From Tolypothrix carrinoi HA7290-LM1 (lineage in GTDB: Bacteria > Cyanobacteriota > Cyanobacteriia > Cyanobacteriales > Nostocaceae), in contig JAHHIK010000022.1 in the NCBI GenBank assembly GCA_019358935.1, positions 20,082 through 84,081 on the forward strand: 64,000 bases of DNA, written 5' to 3'. Below, piece after piece: positions 33,902 to 53,883 of the stretch (within the stretch, counting starts at the first letter, position 1; each line of letters begins with the position of its first letter). The notes beneath the pieces are model-generated. The model saw only the letters and a list, made by a program, of their open reading frames with translations, was not told the origin of the DNA and ran no database searches. A program made the translations under genes and the position numbers.

Positions 33902-33904
33902 TAA

Positions 33905-36369: not shown

Positions 36370-38286
36370 CTACTTCCCAGGTGGACATAGTTGCTGCACT
36401 TTTTGAGGAAGTTGACGGCACGTTTGCTGGAATCCTTGAGGATTAAGTTGCGACCAAGCAAACAATCCCATCGTACTTCCTACCAGCAGCGCTAACATTC
36501 CGGACAGTAGCACCCAAACCTTACCGCGACGTGGTTTTTTAACTTCAGTTGGAGTTGCAGAAACGGCAGGTGCTTCGGCTGATGGAATGTCTAAATCTAG
36601 TAGCGCTTGCGAACTATCTGTCAACTCTGGTTGTGCTGATGATGATTTTTCTTCTATCACGTCCGCTGGTGGTAGCGAGGGAGTCACAGCCACCAAGTAT
36701 TCTGGAGATACACGGCAATGGGTAAGCACAACCGAAATATTATCATGACCATTTTTCTGATTTGCCAAATTAATCCAGTTGTAAGCCGCATCTTCTGGGG
36801 AAATTTCACCTTTTAACACTGGTACTGCATATTCCTGCCAGTGATTTTCCACCAAGTTGTTATCACTCAGTCCATCGGAACACAGCAGTAATATGCCATC
36901 TTCTTCTAAGATGAATCGCTGAATCACAAAACGCAGAAATTCGCCATCTTTTGTCCCCAAAGCTTGGGTAAGGGAATAAGCATCTGGACGTTGTAGTGCT
37001 TTACGATACAGACTGCGGGCATAGCGTACTTCCCGCGATGCTACATCATCATCTACTGTCAGTAACTGGCAGTAGTTGGGTGTAATCCAGTATGCGCGGC
37101 TATCACCGACACTTGCCAAGTAAAGTTCGTGGGTATTCTGTGAGTCGCATCCAGGGGTTATCTCGACTTGTTGCGGCACTTGTACAGCCATAACGACGGT
37201 TGTTGCCATGCGTTCTCTACCTTGGCGTTTTTGGTCGTCGTTGCAAGCGCAAATTACGTTATTTACAACCCGCAAACTTGCTTCTAGTTGCTGCTGTAAC
37301 AATTCTGGCGATACTAGTTCAGTTTGTTGTGCTACTTCTGCTAGTAAGGCGCGAATTTGCAACTTCAGAGATTGTACTGCTAATTGGCTGGCAACTTCAC
37401 CGCCTTCGTGTCCGCCGATACCATCGCACACAATCGATAAGCGCGGTAGTAAGGGATCGTCTGAGTCACCAAAGGCTATGGGATAGCAAGTGTCTTCATT
37501 TTGCTTGAGTTGGGAACCGCTATCTGTTGCTCCTGCGACTTTTAGATTTAATGGCAATTGCGCGGCTGATGATAATAATAACTGATTGAGTTGAGTTGCG
37601 ATCGCTTTTAACTCAATTTCTCCGTCTTCGCACATTGAATCGACTATTTTCTGCAAAGTTGGTGCTACTTCTGGTTTAGCTACAGCTACAATCGGCTTCC
37701 AGCACTCACCCAACTGTTGAAGACTCGGCTGTTCTGACTCATAAAGTTCCAAGAGTCGCACACACCAACCTTGTACTCGCAGGTTGTCGGGAAACAGTAA
37801 ACTCAGGGCAACTTTGAATTCTGATAGAGGTTGCCAAAGTTGAATAATTTGCCACAGCAAGTTTACTTGTCGAACTGGAGTTGCTTGTTCCCATGCGTCG
37901 GCGATCGCTGGATATAAATTTCCAGTTTCATCTATGGGCACATTTTCCAGTAAAAGTATATCATCCGCAAATCCATAAACTTGAGGCAGATGAGAGCGAT
38001 CGCTCGACAAGCGTAAGTAAGGAATAATTGCTTTTGGTAATTCTTCGGGTATATCTGGCAGCTGTCCTGGTTGAATATCCAGCCAAATTTGCGATGTAAT
38101 TACCTCATATCTATCTTTTATTAGTTCTCCCGGTCGAATAACTTGATGTTCACCAGTTGCCCAAATATAACGATGAATTAAAGGAGTTTGACAACTTGCA
38201 CACAATTTGCTATTTCCCACAGAATTGATGGGATTAGTACAGCCAGGATTCGTGCAATAAATTATCCGCTCTTGTGATGAAATCAT
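36370..38286 (-). CDS. PP2C-family Ser/Thr phosphatase with N-terminal Cys zinc ribbon, degenerate kinase-like region and C-terminal TM segment
   Basis: CTNPGC..CASC, NED, VCDGIGGHEGGEVAS, VGDSRAY, LTQALG, LLCSDGL, HDNISVV. Confidence 0.9.
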   Translation of the reverse strand: MISSQERIIYCTNPGCTNPINSVGNSKLCASCQTPLIHRYIWATGEHQVIRPGELIKDRYEVITSQIWLDIQPGQLPDIPEELPKAIIPYLRLSSDRSHLPQVYGFADDILLLENVPIDETGNLYPAIADAWEQATPVRQVNLLWQIIQLWQPLSEFKVALSLLFPDNLRVQGWCVRLLELYESEQPSLQQLGECWKPIVAVAKPEVAPTLQKIVDSMCEDGEIELKAIATQLNQLLLSSAAQLPLNLKVAGATDSGSQLKQNEDTCYPIAFGDSDDPLLPRLSIVCDGIGGHEGGEVASQLAVQSLKLQIRALLAEVAQQTELVSPELLQQQLEASLRVVNNVICACNDDQKRQGRERMATTVVMAVQVPQQVEITPGCDSQNTHELYLASVGDSRAYWITPNYCQLLTVDDDVASREVRYARSLYRKALQRPDAYSLTQALGTKDGEFLRFVIQRFILEEDGILLLCSDGLSDNNLVENHWQEYAVPVLKGEISPEDAAYNWINLANQKNGHDNISVVLTHCRVSPEYLVAVTPSLPPADVIEEKSSSAQPELTDSSQALLDLDIPSAEAPAVSATPTEVKKPRRGKVWVLLSGMLALLVGSTMGLFAWSQLNPQGFQQTCRQLPQKVQQLCPPGK

Positions 38287-38544
38287 GCAGCTATAAGTTA
38301 AAGGTTTAAATCAACCGCAGTTTTTTCGATTACATCTGGCTGTCACATGATTGTTGTTTGGTGCTGTTTTGAGTAAGTTATGGTTGCAATTTTTGGTATA
38401 AATTGTCTAGGCAACGCTAAGAACGTTTAGTTATTTACACTTACTTAATTATGCTTTCATATCTGTTTGTGCGATCGCCACAATGTAGTCGAAAATTCAG
38501 TCCTGCAATTCTAGCCGAAAGATTAACATAAATTTCATCATTTG

Positions 38545-38720
38545 GGATGAGGGGGGATGGGGGGAGTGGGGGAGTGGGGGAGGGGGGGATGGGGAAGACA
38601 AGGAAGAGGGGGAAGACAAGGAGGAGGAATTTCCCCCTTGTCCCCCTTGTCTCCCTTGTCCCCCTTGTCCCCCTTGTCTCCCTTGTCCCCCTTGTCCCCC
38701 TGCCCCCTCTCCCCCCCCTC
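38545..38720. repeat. G/C-rich 8-9-mer tandem repeats (CCCCTTGTC etc.)
   Basis: Same family at ~36260-36370, ~56120-56260 and ~62630-62780. Confidence 0.85.
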
Positions 38721-38721
38721 C

Positions 38722-39117
38722 TCACTCCGCAGCTTGTGCCATTTGACATTGACTGCACAAACCAAAAAACTCTAAAGTGTGGTAAAAAATCTTAAACTTA
38801 TGAGTGCCTTGTAATTGTTCTTCTAGGTCATGGACTGGGCATTGATTTATCGGAATTGAGATACCGCATTGCAAGCAAGTCATGTGATGCTTGTCTTGCT
38901 GCGCTAGGCTATAAAGGGCTTCACCGTTAGCCAATGTCCGCACTTGTACCAAGCCTTCCATTTTTAAAGCTTCCAAAGAGCGGTAAACTGTTGCTAAACC
39001 CATGCTTTGGTTGCGGTTACGCAGTTCTACGTAAATATCCTGCGCGGAAATGCCTTGCTTGATGGTTTTCAGAAGGCTCAAGATACGATCTTGACTGCGG
39101 GTGCGTATGGCTCTCAT
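38722..39117 (-). CDS. zur: Fur-family regulator, Zur/FurB type
   Basis: GLATVYRSL, DKHHMTCLQCG, HTLEFFGLCSQC; divergent from purS. Confidence 0.85.
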   Translation of the reverse strand: MRAIRTRSQDRILSLLKTIKQGISAQDIYVELRNRNQSMGLATVYRSLEALKMEGLVQVRTLANGEALYSLAQQDKHHMTCLQCGISIPINQCPVHDLEEQLQGTHKFKIFYHTLEFFGLCSQCQMAQAAE

Positions 39118-39262
39118 AGACTATTGTTTAAATTTGCCACTGTGGTTGAAGCTGTAAACTTGCTAATTAGATAAATCAACAAGTTAGCGCTTCTTCATCT
39201 TATTTTCACTCACTTGGAACAGAAAGTTATAGTATAGCGATCGCAGCATTCAGCAAAAGCCT

Positions 39263-39541
39263 GTGCAAAGGAAATATCTAGCCAAAATTTTTGTGACGCT
39301 TCGTCCCTCAGTCTTAGACCCTGCTGGTGTGGCTGTACAATCTAGCCTAAAGCAGTTGGGATACGATAACGTTGACTCTGTGCGGATTGGTAAGTACATC
39401 GAAGTAATCATCACCGAACCTGATGAACGTAAAGCACGTCAAAATTTGGATCGCATCTGTGACCAAATGTTAGCAAATCCCGTGATTGAAAATTATCGCT
39501 TTGATTTGATTGAGGTCGAATCACAGACGGGAGTATTTTGA
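39263..39541 (+). CDS. purS: FGAM synthase subunit PurS
   Basis: LRPSVLDPAG, VRIGKYIE, LANPVIENY. Confidence 0.96.
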   Translation: MQRKYLAKIFVTLRPSVLDPAGVAVQSSLKQLGYDNVDSVRIGKYIEVIITEPDERKARQNLDRICDQMLANPVIENYRFDLIEVESQTGVF

Positions 39542-39549
39542 GAGGGGGG

Positions 39550-39698
39550 GATGGGTAATGGGTAATGGGTAATGGGTAATGGAGAATGGGTAATGGGTAA
39601 TGGGTAATGGAGAATGGGTAATGGAGAATGGGTAATGTACTCTTCTCATTCTTACGTTCCCAATTCCCAATTCCCAATTCCCAATTCCCAATTCCCCA
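39550..39698. repeat. STRR arrays (GGGTAAT / CCCAATT) between purS and purQ
   Basis: Tandem heptamers. Confidence 0.9.
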
Positions 39699-39705
39699 AT
39701 AAAAA

Positions 39706-40383
39706 ATGACTAAATTCGGTGTTTTGGTTTTTCCGGGTTCTAATTGCGATCGCGATGTTGCTTATGTCACGCGAGACATTCTCAAGCAACCTACTCGCAT
39801 GGTTTGGCATCAAGATACGGATATTTCTGATTTGGATGCGATAATTATCCCTGGTGGTTTTAGTTACGGGGATTATCTGCGCTGTGGAGCGATCGCTCGT
39901 TTTTCACCTGTGATGCAACAAGTTGTCGAACACGCACAAAAGGGTAAGTTTGTCATTGGTATTTGTAATGGATTTCAGGTATTAACTGAAGCCGGACTTT
40001 TGCCTGGAGCGTTGGTGAGAAATCAAGATTTGCATTTTGTGTGCGATCGCTCTCCCCTAAAAGTCGAGCGTACCGATTTACCTTGGACGCAAGCTTATAC
40101 AAAAGGTGAAATTATCACTTTGCCAATTGCCCACGGTGAAGGAAGATATCATGCAGATGATGTCACTTTGGCAGAAATTGAAGATAACAATCAAGTTGTC
40201 TTTCGTTACGCAGGTGAGAATCCTAACGGTTCGTTAAATAATATTGCGGGTATTTGCAATTCAACAGGAAATGTGCTAGGCATGATGCCGCATCCAGAGA
40301 GAGCGTCTGACGCAATGTTGGGTGGTAGCGATGGGTTAAAGTTGTTTTCTGGATTGTTAGAGCAAGTAGCAGCTTTAGTTTAG
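39706..40383 (+). CDS. purQ: FGAM synthase glutaminase subunit PurQ
   Basis: [40 protein letters not shown]. Confidence 0.98.
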
Positions 40384-40464
40384 CTCCTACGTTTAATTTC
40401 GGTAGCGTTATGGTGACTATTAAGACTAATACTGAATAGTCACCAAAAGCTAGGAGTTAACAGG

Positions 40465-43400
40465 GTGAATAGTATCCAACCAGGAAGCGATGATTTAATT
40501 TACGTAGATTATACGGATTTATTATCAAAAATTTTACATTGCTTGCGTGGTCAGAAAGTCTTTAAAATCTCTGATGATAGCGATCGTTTACGCATCGATA
40601 TTGATAGCATAGCTGCTCAAGTTGCTACTTCTTTGCAGGTAGAAAATCCTTTAGGTGTTTCTGCTAACAGCGCCAAAGCTGCTACAGTTAATTTTAGTCC
40701 GGGTTTTAAAGAAAACTTTCCCAGTCAAATTCAACAAATAAGAGATTGTCTTAAGCAGATATTAGAATCTGCACTAGGAAATAGTACCTCAATTGAGCAG
40801 TTTGTAGGCAACTTAGTTACAGATTTGCAGAATTTTAAAGGTGATAAGGCTGATTTAGACTTTACTTATCCCTTTCTACCGCATCAAGGGTTACAAAAAC
40901 AGCGCTTAAGTTTCAATAGCGAAAATGCTGCAAATAAAGAACTTTTGAAAGTTCACAAACTGACTATCACTGTGCAGAATACCCGTAATTTTAACAAACA
41001 GTTGCAGCAAGGTTTAGCACATTATATTAACGAGCAATTTAGTAGTGCAAGTGCCGGGGAAAAAGAAGATATTGAATACATTCTTGAAGATTTGGAGAAA
41101 GAGAGTAACTCTGATTTTTACCGCTTGCGGGATATTGTCAATCAGGAAACTCTGGGAAAACTCAAAAAACAAGCACAGATAAATTATTTAGAGTTTCTCC
41201 ACGAGAATATTAATATTAGTGCTAGCGCTGCTTACGCTGAAGGTGCTATATATCTCCAAGACCTGATTAGACGACTAAAGCTGATAGAAGAATATATTAA
41301 CGATACCACCAAAGCTGATGGTGATTACTTAGTTAACTATGCAGGTACTTCAGTTAATTATAGAGATTTATTTTCTCGTGGTGAAGCTTTTGAAATATTG
41401 CCAATTATCCCCAAGATAGAAGGTTACTTAGGAGAAACTAAAGATGAAAACCGAGGAGAAATTCAATTTATCTTTGGTCTGAAGCTGAAATTTGATGGTA
41501 AAGTGCAAGCGTATGGTGGCAAAAATGTCTTTGAATATCATCTGAATCTGTTTAACCCAGAGAGTAAGGAACATCAAGTGGGAATCGCAGATGCTAAGAA
41601 GGAAACATTTGCGAGAAAAGTTTTAAAAATAGCGTTTTTATACTATTTTTTGTTTGCAAGTCGCAATAACCCAGAAAAAGATGATTACAACCCAAATGCT
41701 GAATTAGAATACGATCCTATTGCTGGATTTGAGAAAAATGTAATCCAGATTCTTAAGGGTTCTGACGAAGCTGCAAAACAACAGCTTTTTCAGAATATTT
41801 ACAAATATTTTCAGAAATTTAAAGTTCAAAGAAAAATCAATCTCCTCAAAGGGTTGCTGCGAAATCTCATCAAGCGAAAGACTAGCTTTCCGATGCGAGA
41901 GTATCCTTTGCATATTTCTGTGAAAAAAAGCATCCTTGAGGACAATAAAAGCAATATCTTTAATAACAATACATTCTTCAAACCTGTCTTGAGAGGAAAC
42001 CCGAAAGAAGTTTTGAAGTATATATCTATTGGGGAAGCGAAAGCACAGACAAACTCGCTTTGTACTCTTCCAGCGAAAATTACAATCAGTGATATTCATT
42101 TTTTTGCTACCGATGACCGAGAAACCTTTGGTATGGAGTACGATTTAACAAGTATCCGTGCTTTACCTATACTTTTTGCTCCTCTAAAAGATAAAAAATG
42201 CCAAGAGATTTACAATCAACATTTCATCCAGCGTAAACTGATATTATTTCCCTACAGTTTAGAAAGTAATAAACTAGAATCTCACCAAGCTTTTGTTTAT
42301 CGCTTTACCTTTTGCTTACTTGCTTATATCAGTTTGCGGGTATTGTTAGAAAAGCAGAAGATGTTATTTATCCCGATTTTTCGGTTGCATTTAAATAACA
42401 AGCAAGACGATGCACCTATAGAGAAATTTATCGTGTCTTTGTCTTGTGTATTATCTCATTTATTAAACGAGAAACATCGGTCTAATGCACAAGGAATTGA
42501 CATTAGAGACTTGCAAAAGTTAGGTAAATTTAAAGTTCCGAATGTTCTGAGTTCGTTATATTCTGTCTTGCCGAAAAAATTTACCTTTGTCAATGCGTCA
42601 GACTCTCCGCAACTGGATAAATTAGCGATTGTGATAGTATCTAGTCGAGAAAGCGATCGCAAATGGGTTAGTTCTCAAAAAATCTCCAATTTGATGGGAG
42701 AAATTATGGGAGTTAGACGTCAAGATAATGCTGTCAGAGTGCAGTTACTCAAAACTTTCTCAGACAACTACGATAACCAACAAATGTTTACATATCCCAG
42801 CGTTGTCATTGAAGAAGTAGCGAAACTTTACAAAATGGGATTCAAGCACTTTCTCTATATTGCCAAAGCACCTTATTCGAGTACATTGCACATGACACAG
42901 ACTGAGGATGATGACGGATTATTCTTCATGTCAAGAGATGTGATTAAGGCTTTAAAAGCAGAACACAAAGACATCAAGATATATCCGATGTTTTTTGATA
43001 AGTACTATGCGGTTAAGCTTCCAGAGAAACTCAAGTCAAGTTCATTATATATTCAAGATACGATAGAACTGACAAATTTAGTCAATGACCCTAGCAAGCA
43101 ATCTGTCGTGTTTTTTAACTTGTTTAATGGAATTGAGGTTCCGGGTGAGGAAAAAAACTACAATGGTGTTATTTCCTATGCAACGTTATTAAATATTTAC
43201 AAAGGCATTCTGGATGATGAAGACATTAGGAAAGGTTTGATTTTCAATGGGTCATTAAAAAACGACATCTTGCAATATTTAACTTTATTCCACTTTTTCC
43301 GATACCAAAAAGCTTCTAAAGACATTCATCTCAAGCTTGACCCTTACGAAAATCTCATCGGAGAAGAATCTGTGGGTAAACTCTCTCTGTTTAATCATAT

Positions 43401-43482
43401 GAGAGGAAAAAGCGAGTTTAACTCATTAGCGTTTTTAACTTATGTGAATAAAGTATTAAACGCAGAGTCACGCAAAGGTTAA
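40465..43482 (+). CDS. 1005-aa protein with a putative divergent, catalytically inactive Argonaute-like MID-PIWI C-terminal half
   Basis: The ORF is solid (AGGAG SD, GTG start). The domain call is by-eye motif order only: SNAQGIDI..KVPNVLSSLYSVLP, LAIVIVSS, KHFLYIAKAP, IKIYPMFFDKY, FFNLFNG..GVISYATL, ILQYLTLFHF..LKLDPY. Confidence 0.6.
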   Translation: MNSIQPGSDDLIYVDYTDLLSKILHCLRGQKVFKISDDSDRLRIDIDSIAAQVATSLQVENPLGVSANSAKAATVNFSPGFKENFPSQIQQIRDCLKQILESALGNSTSIEQFVGNLVTDLQNFKGDKADLDFTYPFLPHQGLQKQRLSFNSENAANKELLKVHKLTITVQNTRNFNKQLQQGLAHYINEQFSSASAGEKEDIEYILEDLEKESNSDFYRLRDIVNQETLGKLKKQAQINYLEFLHENINISASAAYAEGAIYLQDLIRRLKLIEEYINDTTKADGDYLVNYAGTSVNYRDLFSRGEAFEILPIIPKIEGYLGETKDENRGEIQFIFGLKLKFDGKVQAYGGKNVFEYHLNLFNPESKEHQVGIADAKKETFARKVLKIAFLYYFLFASRNNPEKDDYNPNAELEYDPIAGFEKNVIQILKGSDEAAKQQLFQNIYKYFQKFKVQRKINLLKGLLRNLIKRKTSFPMREYPLHISVKKSILEDNKSNIFNNNTFFKPVLRGNPKEVLKYISIGEAKAQTNSLCTLPAKITISDIHFFATDDRETFGMEYDLTSIRALPILFAPLKDKKCQEIYNQHFIQRKLILFPYSLESNKLESHQAFVYRFTFCLLAYISLRVLLEKQKMLFIPIFRLHLNNKQDDAPIEKFIVSLSCVLSHLLNEKHRSNAQGIDIRDLQKLGKFKVPNVLSSLYSVLPKKFTFVNASDSPQLDKLAIVIVSSRESDRKWVSSQKISNLMGEIMGVRRQDNAVRVQLLKTFSDNYDNQQMFTYPSVVIEEVAKLYKMGFKHFLYIAKAPYSSTLHMTQTEDDDGLFFMSRDVIKALKAEHKDIKIYPMFFDKYYAVKLPEKLKSSSLYIQDTIELTNLVNDPSKQSVVFFNLFNGIEVPGEEKNYNGVISYATLLNIYKGILDDEDIRKGLIFNGSLKNDILQYLTLFHFFRYQKASKDIHLKLDPYENLIGEESVGKLSLFNHMRGKSEFNSLAFLTYVNKVLNAESRKG

Positions 43483-43553
43483 CGCAAAGGTTCGCAGAGT
43501 TCTCTTGTCTTTCTCTGCGTTACTCTGCGCTTCCCTCTGCGTTACTTTGCGTT
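43459..43553. repeat. Palindromic ACGCAGAG/CTCTGCGT dispersed repeat spanning the junction of the two large genes
   Basis: AACGCAGAGTCACGCAAAGG... / ...CTCTGCGTTACTTTGCGTTT; related half-copies at ~5260-5290 and ~7757-7784. Confidence 0.8.
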
Positions 43554-43570
43554 TAGAAAAGGAGATTATA

Positions 43571-46500
43571 ATGAAATCAAAAATAGCAGAAGATTTAGGA
43601 CGTTTGTTTGAAGTAGGATTCAATATTGGAATTCTTGCCTATATTGAACAAAACAAAATTAAGCACAAATTTGCAAACTTATATCGTCAGGAATTGCAAC
43701 AGCTAAAGTTTCCCAAAATGCGGTTGCGAGTTGTAGATAAAGTTATCAGCACTGTAGAAAGAGAAATGGCTGAAACTTGGAGTACATTCTTTTTACAAAA
43801 AGGCTTTTTGAGTGGCTTTAATTTTTTTCATGAATACTTGAAATCTACAAATTGGCTTGAACCTCACAGACTAAGAAATTTAGAAATATTATATTATCAA
43901 TGTAGGTTTAGCGGTGATAACAGCATCGGAACCTACGATATTAAGGATGATAGTCAGTGGTTTACAGAAGTATTATCTCAGTTTGAAAATTTAGATAATA
44001 TCTCTGAGTATATTAAAGGTTATAAACAAAAAGGTGAGTTTCTGAATGCAGACACTTTAATACTGCTGCGACATCGGAGACAATATCGGGTTATCTGTGT
44101 TGATTTATCGGTGTTTTCTATTAATTCCAATGACGATGTGAAAAACCTGGATTATATAGAAATTATCCGACGTTTATTGATGAGGGATATTAGTTATTTA
44201 CGCTCCAAAAGTGTTTTTTCTAATCTTCGCATCGATACTGAATCTTTAGGGTTAGATTTCTCGGAAGATTTAAAGAGTTATTTTACTGCTTTTAAATATA
44301 AAGATAAAGAAAGTGCGAAATTAATTCAAGCTGCTGGTTATGCTCATAGCTTTCATGAATTTATGCAGTCAACTGGGATTTTACCTGATGCAGCATCGGT
44401 GGTATTCAACTCTCTAGGATATAGCGATCGCGGAATAAGTGCCATGTCCATAAACCGCGAAAATTTAGATGTCTTGAAAACCTGTTATCAGATTTACAAA
44501 CATGACTCAAGTCCGAAAGAAATTCCCGAAGCACGCAAGCAAGTTTTAAATCGCATTAAACGCAGCGCTTATAATAGTTTTGAACGTGGTAAACAGTTTG
44601 TTGATGCTCTTTTAGAAGTTCCTCCTGACGAGATTACTTTTTTACCTCCTCATCAAGAGAGAATTACTGGGTTTTTCAACTCTGTTGCTATCGTTCCCCC
44701 AAAGTTAATGTCTCAGTTAAGTTTAACAGGAGTTATGAACTTGCGAGAAGCGCACGCAGAACTGATTAAACAAGCTTTGGTTTCTCAAGATACTTATATA
44801 TTTTTAACTGGAAATCCTGGTATTGGTAAAACTACAGCGATCGTCGATTTTCTCAAAAATCATATAGATGAAGGTTTTCTCTTCTTTTATGTCAGTCCGA
44901 GAAAACAAGTTAACTTGGATATTATCGATAAGTTTAAAAATAAAGAAACGGGAAAATTATGCGATGATAGGTTATTTGCTATCAACACGCATAGCAATAT
45001 CATTACAGATAATTTTGGACGCTACACTGTTGAATATACCTGGAATCAGCGTCAGGGTAAGTTTGTGCAACAATCCGTAGACTTTATTGATAGTAGCGAG
45101 ATTGAGCAAATCGGACGACGTTCAGATAGGTTAAAGAAAACGACGGATGATGTTATTCAAGATATTGGGAAAAAAAGTAAAGGTGTTTTAAATAGCATTT
45201 GTGAGGCGATATCTACGATTGTAGAAGGTGAAGTTTCAAATAATATTATCGCTACCGCTTCTATCCAAGCTTTAAAGATAACACAAGCTGGCGACACTTT
45301 GAAGCATTTTGAGAAAATCTTTAGAAATGCTTACAACGAAAGAGAAAATATAGTCTTTCCTGAGAGGATGCAAGATATTTCTGGGAGAATCAAACATCTA
45401 TTCATCATGATAGATGAAATAACAGGGGATGATGGGGGAGTTCAGTTTTTAGATGGAATTCATAAAATTATATCTAGGTATAAGTTAAATGATAGCAAAC
45501 ACGGTTTTAATACAAAGGTAATTGTTGCCGATGCTTCTATCGTTGAGAAAAATGTTATAATTCAACATCTTTCTGACACATCACCCGAACCAGACAAAAT
45601 CTATTTTCGTCGTGCTACAGAAACTGCTCAACCTCTTTCAATTGAACCATTAGTATTTAAAGATGTCGCAGCAACTGTTATTAATGCTAACTCCTACCCG
45701 GCAAAAAGTTTATCTATCACCTATAAAGTATTGATCGAGTCTTGCAAGTTTAGTGAAGAAGCGCGTTTCAAACTAAAATATAACTTAGAAGCAAGTTTGC
45801 AAAACGAGATTTTAAAAGATATCGAAGCTTTTTTAAATCAGTCGGATGTTGACCAGATAATAGTTTACATCCAAAATCAGCGCAGATTAGCAGAACTGAT
45901 TGAAAGAATTAAGGAACATCGGGGACAATTTGATAAGTTCACCGATTATCTGGAAATACACGCAAATATATCTGAAGAGGAAAAGAAAGAAATACAAAAG
46001 TTTCAAGAAATCGTAAAAGTAGTTTTTATGACTGCTTCCGGAAGTCGGGGTTTATCCTTCCCCAAAGCTAAACACATTTTGGTAGAAATTCCCAAATTTG
46101 AGATTGAGAAAAATCTCATGGAAGTAATTCAGGTAATTTACAGAGGTCGTGGCGATGATAAGATAGATAATCAAGATAAAGAGCTAGTTTTCTACTTAGC
46201 TGAACGTTCAGTTTCTTATCAGGATGACCAGCAATTCTCTTTACAAGAAAGTGTGCTGAGTCTGTTAAATATCTTATTAATTTTGAAAGCTTCTATAATG
46301 ACCAGAATTTTTGGCTCTGGTTGCATAGGACGCGATAATTTTATCATTATACCCATAGGTGGTAAGTCTATTTTAGCTGCTGGGGAAACATTTTCTGCTC
46401 AAATGGTAAATCTGATCAACCAATTGAAGAAAGAACACCATAGAAACAGAAGTGATGTTTTAGCAGAAAAGGTTTATACAAGTTTAGAACAGCTATTAGG

Positions 46501-47194
46501 ACGAGCAGAATTTACTGTTAGGAATACAACTAAATCTAATTATTTAGCGTTGCGGGAGTCTTTCAACCGCGATTTTTATCAAATTTGTCACACTCTAGAT
46601 AAGTTACTGGATTTTGGTAAAATTGAACCGGGATACATTAGTGGTAGTCTGCTGGTAGTGCCTATTGCTAACAACATTTTAGAAGAAACTTATCAAATGC
46701 GTTTGCTGGATATTGCAAATTCTACTGATGAATTATGGCAAAATATGCAGCAAATTAGCCACCGCAAATCTTACCCGGAGAGTTTGCGCTCTGCGATTAA
46801 GGATGCTATAGAGTTAGTTAAAAAGCTCAGGGATGGAGTTGAGAAAACACAGAGACTTGAACAGTTTAGCCAGCGTTTTGACCAGTATTATGCATTGCCA
46901 TTATATGCGTTTATTAGCGGCGAAGCTATGAGTGAATATTTTGCAAATGAACCTAATGAACCTGAAGATGAACGCTTTCGAGATATTTTAGCTGCATATA
47001 TCCGCTTGCTGTATCCTGTTGGTAATATTTTGCCTATTGGTAACAACTATCAAGATTTTCCTTTTGTTGTTTTTAGAAGTTACAGTCTGGAGGAAATGAG
47101 GCAAAAAGTTTTTACAGACAAGTATCTTTTAACTTCTAATGAGTTAAATGTACTGAATTTAATTCTGTCTAGAGATAGTGTTTTTACACCCTAG
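43571..47194 (+). CDS. SF2 helicase with probable N-terminal PD-(D/E)xK/RecB-like nuclease domain (~1207 aa)
   Basis: AAGGAG SD then ATG at 43571; motif I GNPGIGKTT, Ia VSPRK, II MIDEI, III ADAS, IV IVYIQN, V TASGSRGLSFP, VI QVIYRGRG; N-terminal NADTLILL..ICVDLS..IQAAGY. Confidence 0.8.
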   Translation: MKSKIAEDLGRLFEVGFNIGILAYIEQNKIKHKFANLYRQELQQLKFPKMRLRVVDKVISTVEREMAETWSTFFLQKGFLSGFNFFHEYLKSTNWLEPHRLRNLEILYYQCRFSGDNSIGTYDIKDDSQWFTEVLSQFENLDNISEYIKGYKQKGEFLNADTLILLRHRRQYRVICVDLSVFSINSNDDVKNLDYIEIIRRLLMRDISYLRSKSVFSNLRIDTESLGLDFSEDLKSYFTAFKYKDKESAKLIQAAGYAHSFHEFMQSTGILPDAASVVFNSLGYSDRGISAMSINRENLDVLKTCYQIYKHDSSPKEIPEARKQVLNRIKRSAYNSFERGKQFVDALLEVPPDEITFLPPHQERITGFFNSVAIVPPKLMSQLSLTGVMNLREAHAELIKQALVSQDTYIFLTGNPGIGKTTAIVDFLKNHIDEGFLFFYVSPRKQVNLDIIDKFKNKETGKLCDDRLFAINTHSNIITDNFGRYTVEYTWNQRQGKFVQQSVDFIDSSEIEQIGRRSDRLKKTTDDVIQDIGKKSKGVLNSICEAISTIVEGEVSNNIIATASIQALKITQAGDTLKHFEKIFRNAYNERENIVFPERMQDISGRIKHLFIMIDEITGDDGGVQFLDGIHKIISRYKLNDSKHGFNTKVIVADASIVEKNVIIQHLSDTSPEPDKIYFRRATETAQPLSIEPLVFKDVAATVINANSYPAKSLSITYKVLIESCKFSEEARFKLKYNLEASLQNEILKDIEAFLNQSDVDQIIVYIQNQRRLAELIERIKEHRGQFDKFTDYLEIHANISEEEKKEIQKFQEIVKVVFMTASGSRGLSFPKAKHILVEIPKFEIEKNLMEVIQVIYRGRGDDKIDNQDKELVFYLAERSVSYQDDQQFSLQESVLSLLNILLILKASIMTRIFGSGCIGRDNFIIIPIGGKSILAAGETFSAQMVNLINQLKKEHHRNRSDVLAEKVYTSLEQLLGRAEFTVRNTTKSNYLALRESFNRDFYQICHTLDKLLDFGKIEPGYISGSLLVVPIANNILEETYQMRLLDIANSTDELWQNMQQISHRKSYPESLRSAIKDAIELVKKLRDGVEKTQRLEQFSQRFDQYYALPLYAFISGEAMSEYFANEPNEPEDERFRDILAAYIRLLYPVGNILPIGNNYQDFPFVVFRSYSLEEMRQKVFTDKYLLTSNELNVLNLILSRDSVFTP

Positions 47195-47312
47195 AAGGTT
47201 ATATATGGTGGGTGACTGTGGACGAGTGCAATTTAAGCCTATAGATAGGGTTTTCCTCAATTTACTCAGTCTAAGCTGAGGTGTATGAAATCACGCAAGT
47301 TGAGGAATAATT

Positions 47313-47513
47313 ATGCCAGGTGGTAATGCTAGTCATAAGGGTGCTTCTGCTAAAACCAATGTTAACGCTAACGGGTTGACAAATGCTGCTGCTGAAGGAC
47401 CGCAAGAAACTCAGGGAGTTATCAGCAATGCTGACGATTCTACCAGAACCGACGAAGCTGAGGTAAATCCTGCTGCTGTTGAACGTCCGCAGACACCGGA
47501 TGATGAGAAGTAG
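47313..47513 (+). CDS. Small acidic, probably disordered hypothetical protein
   Basis: 66-aa ORF with a GAGG SD; no recognised motif. Confidence 0.6.
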   Translation: MPGGNASHKGASAKTNVNANGLTNAAAEGPQETQGVISNADDSTRTDEAEVNPAAVERPQTPDDEK

Positions 47514-47557
47514 GATTTCAAGCGATCGCTTGTTTTTTATCTAGGCGATCGCTTTGA

Positions 47558-48145
47558 TTATAATATCAACGTTAAATCCAACACAAATCCAGGTAAAACA
47601 TCTTCACCTGATAAAGAAGCAGGATTTTCTAAAATTTCTACATCTTTGCCTGGACGATAAATTTCGACTCGCTTATTTTTGCGGTCAATTAACCAGCCTA
47701 AACTGGCACCGTTGTCAATATATTCTTGCATTTTCTCCTGCAATTCTTTCAGCGAATCAGTACGAGAACGCAACTCAACTACAAAGTCAGGACAAATCGG
47801 AGCAAATTTTTCTTGTTGTTCCGGGGTTAAAGCATTCCACCGCTCAATTTTCACCCAAGAAGCATCAGGGGAACGTTTAGCACCATTAGGTAGGGTGAAA
47901 CCAGTTGAAGAGTCAAAACCTTTGCCTAATTTAGTCTGTTTATTCCAGATTCCTAACTCAACAACGATATCAAAGTTACTATTGCCAGTCTCACTACCTG
48001 TAGGTGGCATAATTAATAATTCCCCTTCGGCTGTGAGTTCAAATCGATAATCGCGGTTGTTTTGACACAGTTGGAAATATTGCTCATCAGTCAAATCGAT
48101 ATTCAATTTTAGTGTAGAAGGTAAGGCAATTTGCAGTGCTTCCAT
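47558..48145 (-). CDS. Uma2 (DUF820) family endonuclease, copy 1
   Basis: ELTAEGELLIMPP, FDSSTGF.LPNGA.RSPDASW, CPDFVVELRS, KMQEYIDNG, VLPGF. Confidence 0.93.
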   Translation of the reverse strand: MEALQIALPSTLKLNIDLTDEQYFQLCQNNRDYRFELTAEGELLIMPPTGSETGNSNFDIVVELGIWNKQTKLGKGFDSSTGFTLPNGAKRSPDASWVKIERWNALTPEQQEKFAPICPDFVVELRSRTDSLKELQEKMQEYIDNGASLGWLIDRKNKRVEIYRPGKDVEILENPASLSGEDVLPGFVLDLTLIL

Positions 48146-48225
48146 AAACTTACCTAAATCCAGCGAGATGGTAAATACTTTCTATTTTAATCTTATATAT
48201 CAAGGCGATCGCGCTTAGAATTTAC

Positions 48226-48813
48226 TTATAATATCAACGTTAAATCCAACACAAATCCAGGTAAAACATCTTCACCTGATAAAGAAGCAGGATTTTCTAA
48301 AATTTCTACATCTTTGCCTGGACGATAAATTTCGACTCGCTTATTTTTGCGGTCAATTAACCAGCCTAAACTGGCACCATTGTCAATATATTCTTGCATT
48401 TTCTCCTGCAATTCTTTCAGCGAATCAGTACGAGAACGCAACTCAATTACAAAGTCAGGACAAATCGGAGCAAAGCTTTCTTGTTGTTCCGGGGTTAAAG
48501 CATTCCAGCGCTCAATTTTCACCCATGAAGCATCGGGGGAACGTTTAGCACCATTAGGTAGGGTGAAACCAGTTGAAGAGTCAAAAACTTCGCCTAAATT
48601 ATTCTGAGAATTCCAAATATCTAGTTGAGTGGTTATTTTAACATTACGTCTGCCAGTATCACTACCTGTAGGTGGCATAATTAATAATTCCCCTTCGGCT
48701 GTGAGTTCAAATCGATAATCGCGGTTGTTTTGACACAGTTGGAAATATTGCTCATCAGTCAAATCAATATTCAATTTTAGTGTAGAAGGTAAGGCAATTT
48801 GCAGTACTTCCAT
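48226..48813 (-). CDS. Uma2 (DUF820) family endonuclease, copy 2
   Basis: Near-identical to copy 1 at a 668-bp offset. Confidence 0.93.
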   Translation of the reverse strand: MEVLQIALPSTLKLNIDLTDEQYFQLCQNNRDYRFELTAEGELLIMPPTGSDTGRRNVKITTQLDIWNSQNNLGEVFDSSTGFTLPNGAKRSPDASWVKIERWNALTPEQQESFAPICPDFVIELRSRTDSLKELQEKMQEYIDNGASLGWLIDRKNKRVEIYRPGKDVEILENPASLSGEDVLPGFVLDLTLIL

Positions 48814-48902
48814 AAACTTACCTAAATTCGGCGAGATGGTAAATACTTTCTATTTTAATCTTATATATCAAGGCGATCGCCAAACGCTTGTTTTTTGACC
48901 GA

Positions 48903-49112
48903 AGAAAGGCAGAGGGCAGAGGGCAGAAGGCAGAAGGGAAGAATTTATTTTCGCTCTGCCAATATGGGTACAAGCCCCTAAATTTATTTATGAAAAACAA
49001 AACAAGATGTATTTCGAGACGCGCAGCGCAAGAAATACGGCATCCAAATTAAATCCCCTAAATTTATTTATGGGGATTCCTTCTGCCCTCTGCCTTCTGC
49101 CTTCTGCCTTCT
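48903..49112. repeat. MITE-like element: GCAGAAG/CTTCTGC heptamer arms around two CCCCTAAATTTATTTATG(GGG) motifs
   Basis: Inverted arms and a duplicated internal motif. Confidence 0.7.
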
Positions 49113-49202
49113 TAAAAATAGGCGATCGCACTCCTCAAACTTTAATGTGCAAGCGCTATATTAAAGCTAAATATTCCAGCTGTCTACGAGTTGGTTTCTG
49201 CA

Positions 49203-49508
49203 ATGGAAAACACAATAAATACGATTGAAGAAAGTGACGAAAACACCGAAGCGATCGCTCTTACTCAAGCGATGGAAATCCAAGATAAAATTAATCAACA
49301 CCTCAAACAATTATCCTTAGAACGCTTACAAGTTGTCGCTGATTTTGTAGCTTACCTAGCAGATAAAGAGAGTGAGGAAGCAACTCAAGAACTTGAGAAA
49401 ATTCCTGGCTTTGTTGAATCGTTTGAAAAGGGTAAGAAAGATATTTCTTTATGTCGCATTACCCCTCTTGAGCTACTTAATTGGAGAACGATTCGTTCTG
49501 ATGTATGA
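49203..49508 (+). CDS. Putative orphan antitoxin (DUF2281-like N-terminus)
   Basis: LKQLSLERLQVVADFVAYL..EATQEL..IPGF..SFEKGKKDI..WRTIRSDV; an overlapping ATGTATGAAGTT suggests a lost downstream toxin. Confidence 0.6.
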   Translation: MENTINTIEESDENTEAIALTQAMEIQDKINQHLKQLSLERLQVVADFVAYLADKESEEATQELEKIPGFVESFEKGKKDISLCRITPLELLNWRTIRSDV

Positions 49509-49510
49509 AG

Positions 49511-51049
49511 TTATCGCAAACAGCGAATTGCCTCTAAAAGCCCCCGTGCTTTATTTAACGTTTCTTCATACTCTTTCTCTGGCTGGGAATCAGCTACCAA
49601 ACCGGCACCAGCTTGCACGGTGACTGTATTATCATGTACTACCATTGTGCGAATGGCGATCGCACTATTCAATTGCCCTTCAAAATCGTAATATCCATAC
49701 ACGCCAGAATATACACCCCGCCGACACGGTTCTAACTCGTGTATAATTTCCATTGCCCTAATTTTCGGTGCCCCGCTGACTGTACCCGCTGGAAAGCAAG
49801 CCTTGAGCAAATCCCAGGCACTTTTACCCGATGCCAGTTTCCCCACAACATTACTGACAATATGCATCACATGAGAGTATTTTTCTACCACCATTAATTC
49901 ATCAACTCTCACACTACCGCTTTCGCACACTCGCCCCAAATCGTTACGCCCTAAATCTACCAGCATTACGTGTTCGGCGATTTCTTTAGGGTCTTGTAGC
50001 AAATCTGCGGCTAAAGCTGCATCTTCCTGGCTTGTTTTCCCTCGCGGACGGGTTCCGGCGATCGGGCGGACTGTGGCGATTATATCATCTGCATCGCGTT
50101 CTGCTTTCACCATCACTTCTGGACTGGAACCGATAATTTGCCAATCATTGAAGTGAAAGTAAGACATGTAAGGCGAAGGATTAATTTGCCGCAGAGAACG
50201 ATAAAGTCCAAAGGGGTCGCCAGTGTATTCTGTTGATAATCGTTGGGAAATTACTACTTGAAAAATGTCGCCCGCTTTGATATAATCCTTAGCTTTTTCC
50301 ACTTGGGCGCAAAATTCATCTCGCGTGAAGTTGCTGGTATATTCCCCCGCACAAGCGCTCAAGCGCTCCCCCACTCCTCTACTTCCTGGTGGTGTCCATT
50401 CTAAGATGGTGTTTTGCGGCGATAGGGGTAAAGATAATTTGTGAACCATCTGGGTGACGCGATCGCACGCTTGTTGATATGCTGCTTGTAAAGACGCGAC
50501 TGATCGCGTCTCTACATTACGTAAATCAGCATAAGCAACTGCCCAAATTTTTCGCTTCACCTGATCGAAAATCAACAGGTGATCTATCTGCATCCACAAT
50601 CCATCCGGGATATTTCGGTCATCTTGAGCATGAATTTTTACTCGCGGTTCTATCCAACGAATCAATTCATAGCCCCAAAAGCCAAATAAACCGCCAATTC
50701 CTGGCGGTAATTGCGGTAACTTTACTGGATGAAAAGGTTCCAGACATTTACTTAAAGCTGCAAATGGATCGCCTTCAAAAACAACTTGCGATCCATCCCG
50801 ATGCGTCTGAGTCGTGCAATCTCCCCTTGCTGCCAAAATCCACAAAGGATCGCAACCCAGTAAACTATAACGTCCCAGTTTTTCCCCGCCTTCTACCGAC
50901 TCCAACAAAAAGCTATAAGGCTGACCCGCACAGACTTTATACCAAGCAGATACGGGCGTATCCAGGTCTGCTACCCACTCTTGATACACCGGGACAAAAT
51001 TACCTTGTAAAGCTTGCTCTTGAAACTCGGCAAAATCGGGAAAAATCAT
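49511..51049 (-). CDS. trpE: Anthranilate synthase component I
   Basis: LLESVEGG..GRYS, AGDIFQVV, NPSPY, SSPE, PIAGTRPRG, EHVMLVDLGRND, GAPKIRAM, QAGAG. Confidence 0.97.
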   Translation of the reverse strand: MIFPDFAEFQEQALQGNFVPVYQEWVADLDTPVSAWYKVCAGQPYSFLLESVEGGEKLGRYSLLGCDPLWILAARGDCTTQTHRDGSQVVFEGDPFAALSKCLEPFHPVKLPQLPPGIGGLFGFWGYELIRWIEPRVKIHAQDDRNIPDGLWMQIDHLLIFDQVKRKIWAVAYADLRNVETRSVASLQAAYQQACDRVTQMVHKLSLPLSPQNTILEWTPPGSRGVGERLSACAGEYTSNFTRDEFCAQVEKAKDYIKAGDIFQVVISQRLSTEYTGDPFGLYRSLRQINPSPYMSYFHFNDWQIIGSSPEVMVKAERDADDIIATVRPIAGTRPRGKTSQEDAALAADLLQDPKEIAEHVMLVDLGRNDLGRVCESGSVRVDELMVVEKYSHVMHIVSNVVGKLASGKSAWDLLKACFPAGTVSGAPKIRAMEIIHELEPCRRGVYSGVYGYYDFEGQLNSAIAIRTMVVHDNTVTVQAGAGLVADSQPEKEYEETLNKARGLLEAIRCLR

Positions 51050-51054
51050 AATTT

Positions 51055-51190
51055 AGGGCATTGGGCATTGGGCATTGGGCATGGGGCATGGGGCATGGGG
51101 CATCGGGCATCGGGCATCGGGAACGGGAAAAACTATTACCTATTACCTATTACCAATGCCCATTGCCCATTGCCCAATTCCCAATTCCCT
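51055..51190. repeat. Composite STRR element; inverted copy at ~51725-51866
   Basis: Core GGGAACGGGAAAAACTATTACCTATTACC on both sides of psaD. Confidence 0.88.
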
Positions 51191-51195
51191 ATTCC

Positions 51196-51615
51196 TTATA
51201 CATCGTAAGGATATTTACCGCTAAACTTGAGTTTAGCTGGACTGGGGTTACTGCCGATGTTGCGGTCTACATAACGCACTTTCTCGCGACCTGGGTTTAC
51301 CTTTTCAGGGAAGACACCATCAGCCGGGTGCAAATACTGGGTTTCGCCGTTGGGATAAATCCGGTAGATTTTGTAGTCTGTGATTTTGAATTTCCGGAGT
51401 TGACCGCCAAAAGCGATGCCGTATTCTTTACGAGCCAAGTAAAGCAGGTTTTCGCCTTGGCGCATGATAGCAGAGCCGCCTGTAGGCATTTCAAACACTT
51501 GCTCCTTGGGGCTAGTCCAGGTGATAGCGTACATTTCTTCTTCGTATGCTTTTGTGAGCAAACCGCCAGTGCTGCCACCGAATATGGGAGTTTGTCCAGT
51601 TAGTGTTTCTGCCAT
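51196..51615 (-). CDS. psaD: Photosystem I subunit II
   Basis: [39 protein letters not shown]. Confidence 0.98.
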
Positions 51616-51843
51616 AAAAAAAATTGTCTCTCAACGTTTTTAGGGCATCGTAACACTGCGACCTGGGTCATGTTGCGATCGCGTTATAGACTGTAACAGT
51701 TCTTTGTTAATTGTTGGGGAAAAAGGTAATTGGGCAATGGGCATTGGTAATAGGTAATAGGTAATAGGTAATAGTTTTTCCCGTTCCCGATGCCCCATGC
51801 CCCATGCCCCATGCCCCATGCCCCATGCCCCATGCCCAATGCC

Positions 51844-53883
51844 CTATGCCCCATGCCCGATGCCCAACCCCTCACTTTTTTGACTGACAATCGGGATAGT
51901 AAAGTGAAACTCACTGCCTTTGTCTTTGCCCCTTGAGTCAGCCCAAATTTCACCGCCCCAACCATTGACAATTTGGCGACATATTGCTAGTCCTAAACCA
52001 GTGCCACCAGTTGTACGTCGCAGTGCTCCCTCTTCTTGATAAAAGCGGTCAAAAACTACTTCTAGTCGATTTGGTTCAATACCGCGTCCAGTATCAGCCA
52101 CAGTTACCTCAACCATCCGATCGCTGTTGCGAGTCGCCTTAATGGTAATCTGTCCTTGTGGAGGTGTAAATTTACAAGCGTTATCGACGATTTTTGCTAG
52201 TACCTCCACTAACCAATCGCCGTCTGCTCTAATCAAAGGTAGATTTGGGGCAATTTTACTCTTGATTTTCGGCTGCTTTTCTGTCTTCGAGCGAGTGCGA
52301 AAGCGGCTAATTGCTAGTTCCACGCACTCTTCTATCGTCAAAGATTCTGGATGCCATTCTACCCGACCACTTTCTAAGTTAGAAAGTGTTAAGAAATCTT
52401 GCACCAGTTTCCGCATTCGTTCGGAGTCAGCTAGAGCGGTACTCAGCATCACTTGTTGCAATTCTAGAGGCATATCCGGTTCGCTCGCGAGACTTTCCAA
52501 GCACACCTGAATCGTGGATAGAGGAGTGCGGAGTTCGTGTCCGGTGATGGCTATAAGGTTGCTGCGGGTGCGGTCGAGGGCTTCTAGTTGTTGGTTGAGG
52601 TCTTCTAGGTTAGCATAAGCTTCAGCTTGGATGAGAGCCGAACCAACTTGGGTGGCGATCGCTTTTACTAAATCCAATTCTCCAGCTTGCCACTGATGGG
52701 GAGGCAAACCGCAATAGTGTAACTCGACTATGCCTAACAATCGTCCTTGAAATAATACTGGTTCCATCAGCATTGAACGAATCGCAAACTTTTTGGCGAT
52801 TAAAGAAAGTTCCTTATCACTGTTAATGCGATCGTCATTTAGACTATTGACAACGCTGATACCCTCACTTTGTTGTACGATCGCCTGAAATAAAGGATTA
52901 TTTCGTAAATGCCAAGTTTGCCCGACAACAGATAAAACACCAGGACTCAAAAACTCGTGTTCTATTTTCGCGCTTGCCGAAGTAGCTTGAGCGCGGTAAA
53001 TTAAACACCTCGAAGCTTCTAGATGTTGTCCCAATTCTTGCACTGCGACTTGGAGAACTTCTTGAGGATTAAGCGATCGCCTAATTGCCGTGCTAATCGA
53101 GTTGATCAAGCGCTCTTTGCGTGCTTGAGCGGCAATTGAACGATAAGCTTTGTGTAATTTGTACTGGCTAGCTTGCAAGTAAGTCACCAAACGCTGCACA
53201 AACGGGTTAGTGTCAATGTCACAAAAATCTAAAGGTATTTCTTCTACTTTTGAGTAGCTTGACAGCAAATCCTGAGTCACTCCTCTGTTACCCCGATGCA
53301 CCCCAATACCAAATCTCTGGCTTACCTGCTCAACTTTGCTTGCCAATTCTGGTCTGTAAATTACAATTCTGTCTAATAGCAACTCGGCTGCTTTTAGGCT
53401 TACTTCTCGCTCACTAGTCCAAATCCCCTCAAATCTTCGCGCTGTCTCCATATCCAAACCGATGTTTAATTCTGGCATCGGCTTATTCTTAGTTACAGAG
53501 CCTTGGCTTTCTCGGCACACTAAGCAAGTTGCATAGTTTTGGGCAATTACTACCAAATGCCATTCGTGACTTAAAGCATCTTCTTGCTCAAAGGCGATTT
53601 TTTCGTAGTATTCCGAGCTATTAGTGAAATCCGTTTCCGGTGCAGCTAACACGTATAGTTGATTGCTGCGATCGGCAAGTCGCTGATATCGATGAGCTTC
53701 TTGGCGGTAGAATCTCTCTCGTTGGAAGCTCGCAATGACCAAGGGATGGTCTAAAGTTGCCGCCAAAACCTGATCTTCCATCGCATGGGAGAGCGCTGTT
53801 AGAGAAGCTTTGAAATATAGCTGGGGTCGTACGTGAGGTAGCGTCTGTAGCAGATCGCTCAACACAGAAGTCGAAATGCTCAT
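51844..53883 (-). CDS. Sensor histidine kinase (DICT-GAF-HisKA-HATPase)
   Basis: YFKASLTALSHAMED..ASFQRERFY (DICT), GAF region, GHELRTPL, DNACKFT, DTGRG, FDRFYQ, GTGLGL. Confidence 0.93.
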   Translation of the reverse strand: MSISTSVLSDLLQTLPHVRPQLYFKASLTALSHAMEDQVLAATLDHPLVIASFQRERFYRQEAHRYQRLADRSNQLYVLAAPETDFTNSSEYYEKIAFEQEDALSHEWHLVVIAQNYATCLVCRESQGSVTKNKPMPELNIGLDMETARRFEGIWTSEREVSLKAAELLLDRIVIYRPELASKVEQVSQRFGIGVHRGNRGVTQDLLSSYSKVEEIPLDFCDIDTNPFVQRLVTYLQASQYKLHKAYRSIAAQARKERLINSISTAIRRSLNPQEVLQVAVQELGQHLEASRCLIYRAQATSASAKIEHEFLSPGVLSVVGQTWHLRNNPLFQAIVQQSEGISVVNSLNDDRINSDKELSLIAKKFAIRSMLMEPVLFQGRLLGIVELHYCGLPPHQWQAGELDLVKAIATQVGSALIQAEAYANLEDLNQQLEALDRTRSNLIAITGHELRTPLSTIQVCLESLASEPDMPLELQQVMLSTALADSERMRKLVQDFLTLSNLESGRVEWHPESLTIEECVELAISRFRTRSKTEKQPKIKSKIAPNLPLIRADGDWLVEVLAKIVDNACKFTPPQGQITIKATRNSDRMVEVTVADTGRGIEPNRLEVVFDRFYQEEGALRRTTGGTGLGLAICRQIVNGWGGEIWADSRGKDKGSEFHFTIPIVSQKSEGLGIGHGA

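Follow-up and report, generated by a model that had tools for sequence, protein, structure and literature searches.

Two adjacent genes of the filamentous cyanobacterium Tolypothrix carrinoi HA7290-LM1, referred to here as gene 1 and gene 2, were analysed within a 64,000-nucleotide stretch of DNA (the window; contig JAHHIK010000022.1, positions 20,082 to 84,081 of the forward strand, assembly GCA_019358935.1). In our reading, the two proteins would make up a guide-directed system of DNA interference that belongs to a family not yet described and would clear foreign DNA; we give this reading a probability of about 0.62. The initial annotation, made from the sequence without database searches, had proposed that gene 1 encodes a very divergent guide-binding PIWI protein that recruits gene 2, a nuclease-helicase, to unwind and degrade foreign DNA. 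That interpretation is supported by the fold and conserved residues of the two proteins and by the coupling of their genes; recruitment and defence are what we infer from them.

Fold and conserved residues of the two proteins

Searches of the gene 1 product against Pfam, PADLOC, NCBIfam and PDB sequences returned nothing significant. An AlphaFold model was built from 59 sequences, with a mean predicted local distance difference test score (pLDDT) of 77, and compared with known structures. All 44 Foldseek rows listed were Argonaute or PIWI entries (best E 4.1e-5), among which we presume to count 4kpy, a row with an unspecific title. With VIA, the top match was A. aeolicus Ago (Z 9.3, root-mean-square deviation 4.5, 310 aligned residues), followed by a CDK8-module chain that we take to be Med13 (Z 8.8); the 50 rows listed were all Ago/PIWI or CDK8-module entries (Z 7.6-9.3), and the first unrelated fold scored Z 6.7 over 106 residues. 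These Z values are barely above the tool's noise level of 7-8, and the case for an Argonaute fold is made because some 300 aligned residues span MID and PIWI in order and because the matches are uniform in family identity. The tandem MID and RNase H-type PIWI fold was recovered over ~280-420 aligned residues with a core at 548-996. Strands of the N-terminal half could also be partly matched, beginning at residue ~145, with the N-terminal/linker region of long Argonautes. No PAZ match was seen with Pfam or in the full-length model, where the region is mostly helical. The model supports the PIWI reading of gene 1 in the initial annotation; the protein is very divergent, and sequence profiles miss it.

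Conserved positions were taken from an alignment of 87 gene 1 homologues reaching down to ~21% identity, with 17 cyanobacterial prokaryotic Argonautes (pAgos) as a control. Profile alignments to pAgos and pPIWI-RE failed, and slicer and MID positions were placed by motif and strand order. Acidic residues were absent from RNase H strand 1 (719-728, D/E 0%) and rare at the end of strand 4 (797-804, D/E at most 2%); the control pAgos retained these aspartates in 16/17 and 17/17 sequences, respectively. No DEDX tetrad was found across the 87 homologues, three of the four slicer positions being non-acidic and a conserved finger Glu being absent; the fourth position may be acidic (967, D/E in 68%). 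Judged by this alignment, gene 1 is probably not a slicer.

In the MID domain, Q676 was invariant (87/87), and K661, H665 and K/R704 occurred in 62, 54 and 66 of the homologues. Together the four positions have the 4-11-28 spacing of RsAgo Y463/K467/Q478/K506 (PMC6299218). Y905 and H943 were likewise invariant, and N693, S697, P960 and E948 nearly so; these conserved residues fall in the MID pocket and in a PIWI helix corresponding to the motif of the control pAgos. The copy in the window has Gln948 where 82/87 homologues have Glu. Position 948, like 661, varies also among close relatives, and guide preference may be shifted in this clade.

The helicase core of gene 2 bears out the full SF2 motif set that had been described: its motifs lie at 391 (LRxAH, in the Q-motif position), 414 (Walker A), 440, 561, 615 (DExT), 653, 765, 794, 819 and 854, and the complete set is kept across two gene 2 clades whose N-terminal domains share about 20% identity. 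The distance between motifs II and III is 38 residues, versus 332 in the DinG of pPIWI-RE triads, and the core holds no conserved Cys, whereas triad DinG has four invariant Cys at 334-376. Arch and Fe-S inserts define DinG proteins (PMC11981726); the short distance and the lack of conserved Cys therefore indicate that both inserts are missing from gene 2 and, on these sequence features, that its motor is of a non-DinG type. Pfam, PADLOC and NCBIfam gave only generic helicase or P-loop matches, and a PDB sequence search gave nothing significant. Profile-profile comparison with triad DinG and REase found nothing significant beyond Walker A, a weak negative given the shallow templates. By features, the nearest named groups after the protein's own clusters were DEAD/ResIII and type I-D Cas3' helicases (0.90, a lead only).

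Residues 1-400 of gene 2 were modelled from 98 sequences (pLDDT 83). Of the N-terminal residues listed in the table below, E14 was present in 97/98 homologues and all others in 98/98; the nuclease-type residues were also kept in 12/12 members of a further set that includes the query. Topology and residues fit an alpha-beta-beta-beta-alpha-beta core, with weak fold scores (Z at most 5.8). ACE1 (Z 5.6 and 5.8), Dna2 (5.4), AddB (5.0), AdnAB and MGME1 stood near the top of a VIA list that mixes nucleases with unrelated helical proteins. The QxxxY motif is a mark of the RecB family. The invariant K246 and K250 sit on the helix that follows the canonical third-motif Lys position, and the domain is a probable RecB/Cas4-type PD-(D/E)XK nuclease with a displaced lysine. 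The N-terminal nuclease of the initial annotation is thereby supported by conserved residues and weak fold matches.

Coupling, distribution and setting of the pair

A scan of GTDB yielded 171 stretches, from which the best 80 loci were retained; five end at a contig edge, leaving 75 informative. Gene 2 lay directly after gene 1 in 68 of the 75 (three as partial or remnant copies only). One locus had it 5.7 kb further on and another had it upstream, whereas five showed no gene 2 within 8 kb. Each of these five genomes retained a full-length match at a different site, in one case interrupted by an internal stop. Among 151 same-family genomes, whose kinship makes them non-independent, gene 1 was matched in 66, gene 2 in 67 and the two together in 61, and full-length gene 2 was present in 44 of the 47 with full-length gene 1. 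Of 20 further loci chosen for divergent gene 1 matches, 19 had the pair and one a MID-helicase fusion; gene 2 followed gene 1 in 19/19 paralogue loci. A survey of the phylum to which a Chloroflexia genome belongs found gene 1 in 10/351 genomes, with gene 2 after it in 8/9 new loci and the ninth shattered by insertions. Trees of the two genes were compared over 72 loci that carry both: of 57 gene 1 splits with support, 48 recurred in the gene 2 tree and five conflicted. The two genes are coupled, and the gene neighbourhoods to which the initial annotation had pointed show both this adjacency and a patchy distribution.

Variant arrangements were also seen. P0280, a 2028-aa protein on a single 6.7-kb contig, joins full gene 1 to positions 7-988 of gene 2 and is either a real fusion or an assembly error. 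The MID-helicase fusion (L093:9333-13427) is a 1364-aa open reading frame (ORF) with only the MID region of gene 1 and a helicase truncated by ~190 positions at its start; it probably arose by deletion. In Microcoleus and relatives (L039 and L043-L046, 7983-17690), a single helicase gene lies between two gene 1 paralogues, so that two sensors may share one effector, and a tandem PIWI-helicase-PIWI-helicase order occurs at L078. Beyond cyanobacteria, homologues of gene 1 were found in Bacillus, Gottfriedia and Thermogemmatispora, and those of gene 2 in Methylomonas and Acidobacteria; a metagenome scan with a Bacillus homologue found nothing.

Within 201 sampled cyanobacterial genomes, this family occurred in 32 (29 with an intact frame), classical pAgos in 17 and pPIWI-RE in 7. 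Despite this frequency, the family is annotated only as hypothetical protein plus helicase. Gene 1 was not found in 85 of the 151 same-family genomes, including one of the same genus. The five genomes without the pair that were checked at purQ have other genes there, and in one of them (L163) purQ and Uma2 meet directly in a clean junction. Broken copies, pseudogenes and several paralogues per genome occur. Gene 1 was present on six conjugative plasmids, with the full pair on both that were opened, and plasmid C of Trichormus variabilis ATCC 29413 carries a copy. Seven of 34 non-purQ loci have clear defence genes next to them, among them genes of type I or IV restriction, of BREX and of DISARM-like systems, and PADLOC candidates (121/133 neighbours scanned). 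No relative was found among IMG/VR contigs and GenBank phages with the queries used. In the source genome, the two genes have a GC content of 35%, where the genome as a whole has 42% and purQ and trpE have 43-46%. We count low GC, patchiness, broken copies, plasmid carriage and defence neighbours as defence-like behaviour. One divergent pair (L094:2840-18338) lies between DrmMI-like and DrmD/DpdE-like genes, inside a DISARM-like locus.

The two large ORFs were described as co-oriented, about 90 bp apart and each equipped with a Shine-Dalgarno sequence, and this description holds. Gene 1 starts with GTG, with AGGAG 8 nt 5' of the start codon; the mechanical ORF of gene 2 opens at TTG 43505, and its start is likely the ATG at 43571 behind AAGGAG, where homologues begin too, which leaves an 88-bp gap. 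Each gene has one copy in the genome. The nearest named homologues (93-95%) are from Hassallia and Tolypothrix. The ORFs are not chance occurrences, because 514 of 8000 scored candidates were homologues of gene 1 and 651 of 7999 of gene 2, and because dN/dS was 0.12-0.18 in the four relatives compared. HIP1 sites in the two genes numbered 2, against 6.7 expected at the genome rate (Poisson P 0.04, GC ignored).

Table. Coordinates in the window of the two genes, their domains and the upstream repeat.
Feature	Position	Strand	Remarks
Inverted repeat, 17-nt arms, 88% complementary	40408..40448	+	Between purQ stop and gene 1 ribosome-binding site
Gene 1	40465..43482	+	1005-aa divergent Argonaute-fold protein, predicted slicer-dead
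Gene 1 N-terminal half, residues 1-547	40465..42105	+	Strands and large helical inserts
Gene 1 MID-PIWI lobe, residues 548-996	42106..43452	+	AlphaFold model, Foldseek, VIA, homologue alignment
Gene 2	43571..47194	+	1207-aa predicted nuclease-helicase fusion
Gene 2 N-terminal domain, residues 1-~345	43571..44605	+	E14, D161, D/E178, K246, K250, Q253, Y257
Gene 2 SF2 helicase core, residues 391-861	44741..46153	+	Predicted to lack the Arch and Fe-S inserts of DinG
Gene 2 conserved C-terminal region, residues 862-1207	46154..47191	+	Conserved alignment columns

Upstream lies purQ, as had been noted; it ends at 40383. The inverted repeat that follows it was absent from the terminator scan's listing and may form a hairpin with a transcript-stabilising or terminator-like role. 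Short inverted repeats also run across the gene 1 stop and the spacer (43459-43553), so that a hairpin between the genes is possible. The Uma2/antitoxin cluster placed downstream reduced to two Uma2 genes, duplicated 668 bp apart, and a DUF2281-like ORF below the Pfam cut-off. The duplication (47553-48880) is in tandem, with a 668-bp period, blocks 95-98% identical and a HIP1-containing repeat bounding each copy. The Uma2 neighbours were rejected as evidence for a defence island; they are weak evidence because the Uma2 query has 22 tblastn matches in the source genome. Between gene 2 and the Uma2 genes lies a single-copy, 66-aa acidic low-complexity ORF (47313-47513, + strand), seen in only 1/80 related loci (query out of frame). 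Short tandem repeats at 33766-34157, 38441-38795 and 39411-39677 give rise to several spurious ORFs and below-threshold Rfam rows; no Rfam match in 38000-52000 reached the gathering score, the listed rows being repeat-derived. Promoter and terminator counts were the same as in shuffles.

Proposed mechanism and alternative explanations

The proposed mechanism starts from the MID-PIWI lobe of gene 1 seen in the model. As indicated by the alignment and strand-order mapping, gene 1 lacks the slicer tetrad and so would sense rather than cut. A short guide, most likely DNA, would be held by its 5' end in the variant MID pocket, and guided gene 1 would open a matching site in plasmid or phage DNA. 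Given the genetic coupling, gene 1 may then load gene 2 onto the displaced strand. The SF2 motor, whose motifs are present, would unwind the duplex at the expense of ATP, probably with 3'-5' polarity because gene 2 is not of the DinG/XPD type, and would feed single strands to gene 2's own N-terminal RecB/Cas4-type nuclease; the fragments made by gene 2 may also supply new guides. Guide binding, physical contact between the proteins and defence are thus steps that we infer.

Several observations weigh against this scheme. The MID pocket (K, H, Q and K in most homologues, where an Argonaute 5'-guide pocket has Y/R-K-Q-K) is non-canonical by the criteria of PMC6299218; the copy in the window has Cys661 where 62/87 homologues have Lys; and K704 comes after the conserved Pro, not before it, so that its equivalence rests on spacing. 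On the side of gene 2, the nuclease Z values are under the tool's noise level (Z under 8), Foldseek found no match to the N-terminal model at E<=0.001, and the canonical third-motif Lys is replaced by Ser. Among three distant metagenome loci, gene 2 was alongside gene 1 in one, with none within 3.6-5.2 kb in the other two. A clear defence neighbour was missing in 27/34 non-purQ loci, a count that has no background comparison. Finally, the pair lies directly behind purQ in 30 of the 80 loci, which points to long vertical inheritance and leaves room for a housekeeping role.

Such a role would have gene 2 resect breaks, or clear R-loops or replication-termination structures, in place of RecBCD/AddAB, with the PIWI protein as a hybrid or end sensor. 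The shared purQ site, the purifying selection on the pair, the retention of both genes where they are separated and the likeness of the predicted gene 2 nuclease to ACE1, Dna2, AddB and AdnAB are all consistent with this idea, as are the absence of RecBCD and AddAB from most cyanobacteria (PMC12094033) and the ciprofloxacin sensitivity of a PIWI-RE knockout (PMC10991935). We nevertheless consider it unlikely: a majority of same-family genomes, one of the same genus among them, do without a detected pair, the L163 junction is clean, and pseudogenes, plasmid copies and multiple paralogues per genome occur. Rather improbable, too, is abortive infection, in which target recognition by the PIWI protein would unleash non-specific degradation by gene 2 and so kill or arrest the cell instead of ridding it of the invader, the outcome seen with short-pAgo and long-B nuclease systems. 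A slicer-dead sensor with a separate nuclease is the SPARDA-type layout as well (PMC13434031); a processive helicase fused to a nuclease, however, accords with destroying whichever molecule is bound, as DdmD does, and carriage on conjugative plasmids fits competitor clearance or phage defence equally.

The PIWI lobe might instead have decayed to a guide-free binder of particular structures (forks, R-loops or ends) or to a scaffold that regulates the nuclease-helicase. The non-canonical pocket would suit such a change, with Lys at 661 in only 24/59 close relatives, as would the CDK8-module chain in second place among the wide fold matches and the homologue that joins MID alone to a helicase. 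Against it stand the invariant Q676, Y905 and H943 and the nearly invariant N693, S697, P960 and E948, placed as they are in the MID pocket and the pAgo-matching PIWI helix, and we regard it as having little chance of being correct. That gene 1 is itself active as a nuclease, through a rearranged site (D731, D845, D865 and D/E967), leaving gene 2 mainly to unwind or to make guides, is scarcely credible: D731 is kept in 77/87 homologues, 845 is D/E in 86%, and 967 fits the fourth tetrad position by its spacing from the conserved Pro, but both strand-end RNase H aspartates are missing in all or nearly all of the 87, and gene 2 keeps its own nuclease residues in 97-98/98.

Guide-directed interference by the pair therefore remains our preferred reading, and a wider version of it is advanced only tentatively, at odds well short of even. 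The pair might represent a separate PIWI lineage, unseen by the profile libraries tried and commoner in cyanobacteria than classical pAgos or pPIWI-RE, that independently reached DdmDE-like guide-directed DNA clearance through a non-DinG, probably 3'-5' motor and an N-terminal RecB/Cas4-type nuclease that would both destroy the target and make guides; its two proteins would then form a programmable DNA shredder that needs no further component, and in some genomes paired PIWI paralogues would share a single helicase. If the pair does clear foreign DNA, it would fill a large gap in the picture of cyanobacterial immunity and be a candidate obstacle to engineering filamentous strains genetically. 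Slicer-dead Argonautes would then have acquired helicase-nuclease partners on more than one occasion, each time with another motor, and the pair would be a compact candidate for programmable long-range DNA degradation.

Comparison with known systems

The literature used in comparing the pair with known systems includes 10.1101/2024.10.09.617351, 10.1101/2024.05.10.593530 and PMC13276650. No confident match to a described system emerged from Pfam, PADLOC, NCBIfam or the literature, in line with the initial annotation; full-text literature searches, which cover few subscription papers, listed no description of this pair. APACE1 (PMC12094033) is cyanobacterial, and its ACE1 heads the fold matches to the gene 2 N-terminus, but its pAgo is an active slicer (long-A) and the Cas4-family ACE1 has no helicase. 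Gene 2, in turn, has no conserved Cys cluster. Cas3 combines an N-terminal nuclease with an SF2 motor and is recruited by a guide-bound sensor, a layout that gene 2 would share and to which the type I-D Cas3' feature lead also points. Its nuclease, however, is of the HD type and that of gene 2 PD-(D/E)XK-like, and the sensor here would be a single PIWI protein.

The pPIWI-RE systems resemble the pair in having a divergent ~1000-aa PIWI protein, REase-fold nuclease and SF2 helicase functions, and a patchy distribution across phyla (PMC3702460). By language-model features, the nearest named clusters to gene 1 were those of pPIWI-RE (0.95, 213 shared features); profile-profile comparison with 5 pPIWI-RE proteins and with the 17 pAgos gave no significant match, a weak negative with shallow templates. 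Those systems have three genes (REase, DinG and pPIWI-RE), whereas here there are two, with PIWI first and the nuclease fused to the helicase. The characteristic Arg (strand 5) and Glu (sheet extension) of pPIWI-RE were located through the numbering of PMC10991935 and mapped by strand order; across the 87 gene 1 homologues, K/R was found in 0% at 839-843 and D/E in at most 1% at 901-908. The DinG-type Cys cluster and Arch insert are missing from gene 2, and at E up to 1 neither gene 1 nor any of 24 diverse members matched PF13032, PF18157 or PF13111. By these marks the pair is not a pPIWI-RE system: gene order, helicase type, R/E residues and Pfam models all fail to agree. In three sampled genomes the two systems are both present and intact, each at its own locus, and the gene 1 profile misses the pPIWI-RE loci. 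Canonical cyanobacterial REase-DinG-pPIWI-RE triads were seen at L107-L110 and L112; the four triad pPIWI-REs that were aligned have no strand 1 aspartate and keep one on strand 4. Cyanobacterial pPIWI-RE proteins are 979-1096 aa long, and the ~1000-aa PIWI partner, offered earlier as a distinctive trait, is not one.

DdmDE is the closest parallel in design. It too has two genes, a slicer-dead PIWI protein without the DEDX tetrad and an SF2 helicase fused to a PD-(D/E)XK nuclease, as predicted for gene 2, and its MID Gln and Lys are about 28-29 residues apart. No DdmDE sequence match was obtained in PADLOC, in a copy whose DdmDE models were unchecked, and DdmE, a long-C pAgo marked by C-APAZ and a PIWI insertion, was named nowhere among the fold matches listed for gene 1, whose fold may still be DdmE-like. 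In DdmD the nuclease is C-terminal and the helicase is DinG/XPD-like, with INS and Arch and 5'-3' polarity; in gene 2 the predicted nuclease is N-terminal (residues 14-257, ahead of the helicase at 391-861) and there is no room for Arch. With the predicted nuclease at the opposite end and no Arch in the helicase, the pair is not a member of DdmDE. The architecture thus differs from DdmDE and pPIWI-RE, as first proposed, in its predicted N-terminal nuclease and its two genes only, and the non-DinG helicase, as read from its sequence, is a stronger distinction than those first noted. In DdmDE, which recruits its helicase by way of the guide and eliminates plasmids, the slicer-dead pAgo loads the helicase-nuclease onto the displaced strand, and by analogy the pair probably works in the same manner; it has the look of a guide-directed system, not described so far, that would act on foreign DNA with parts unlike those of the known systems.

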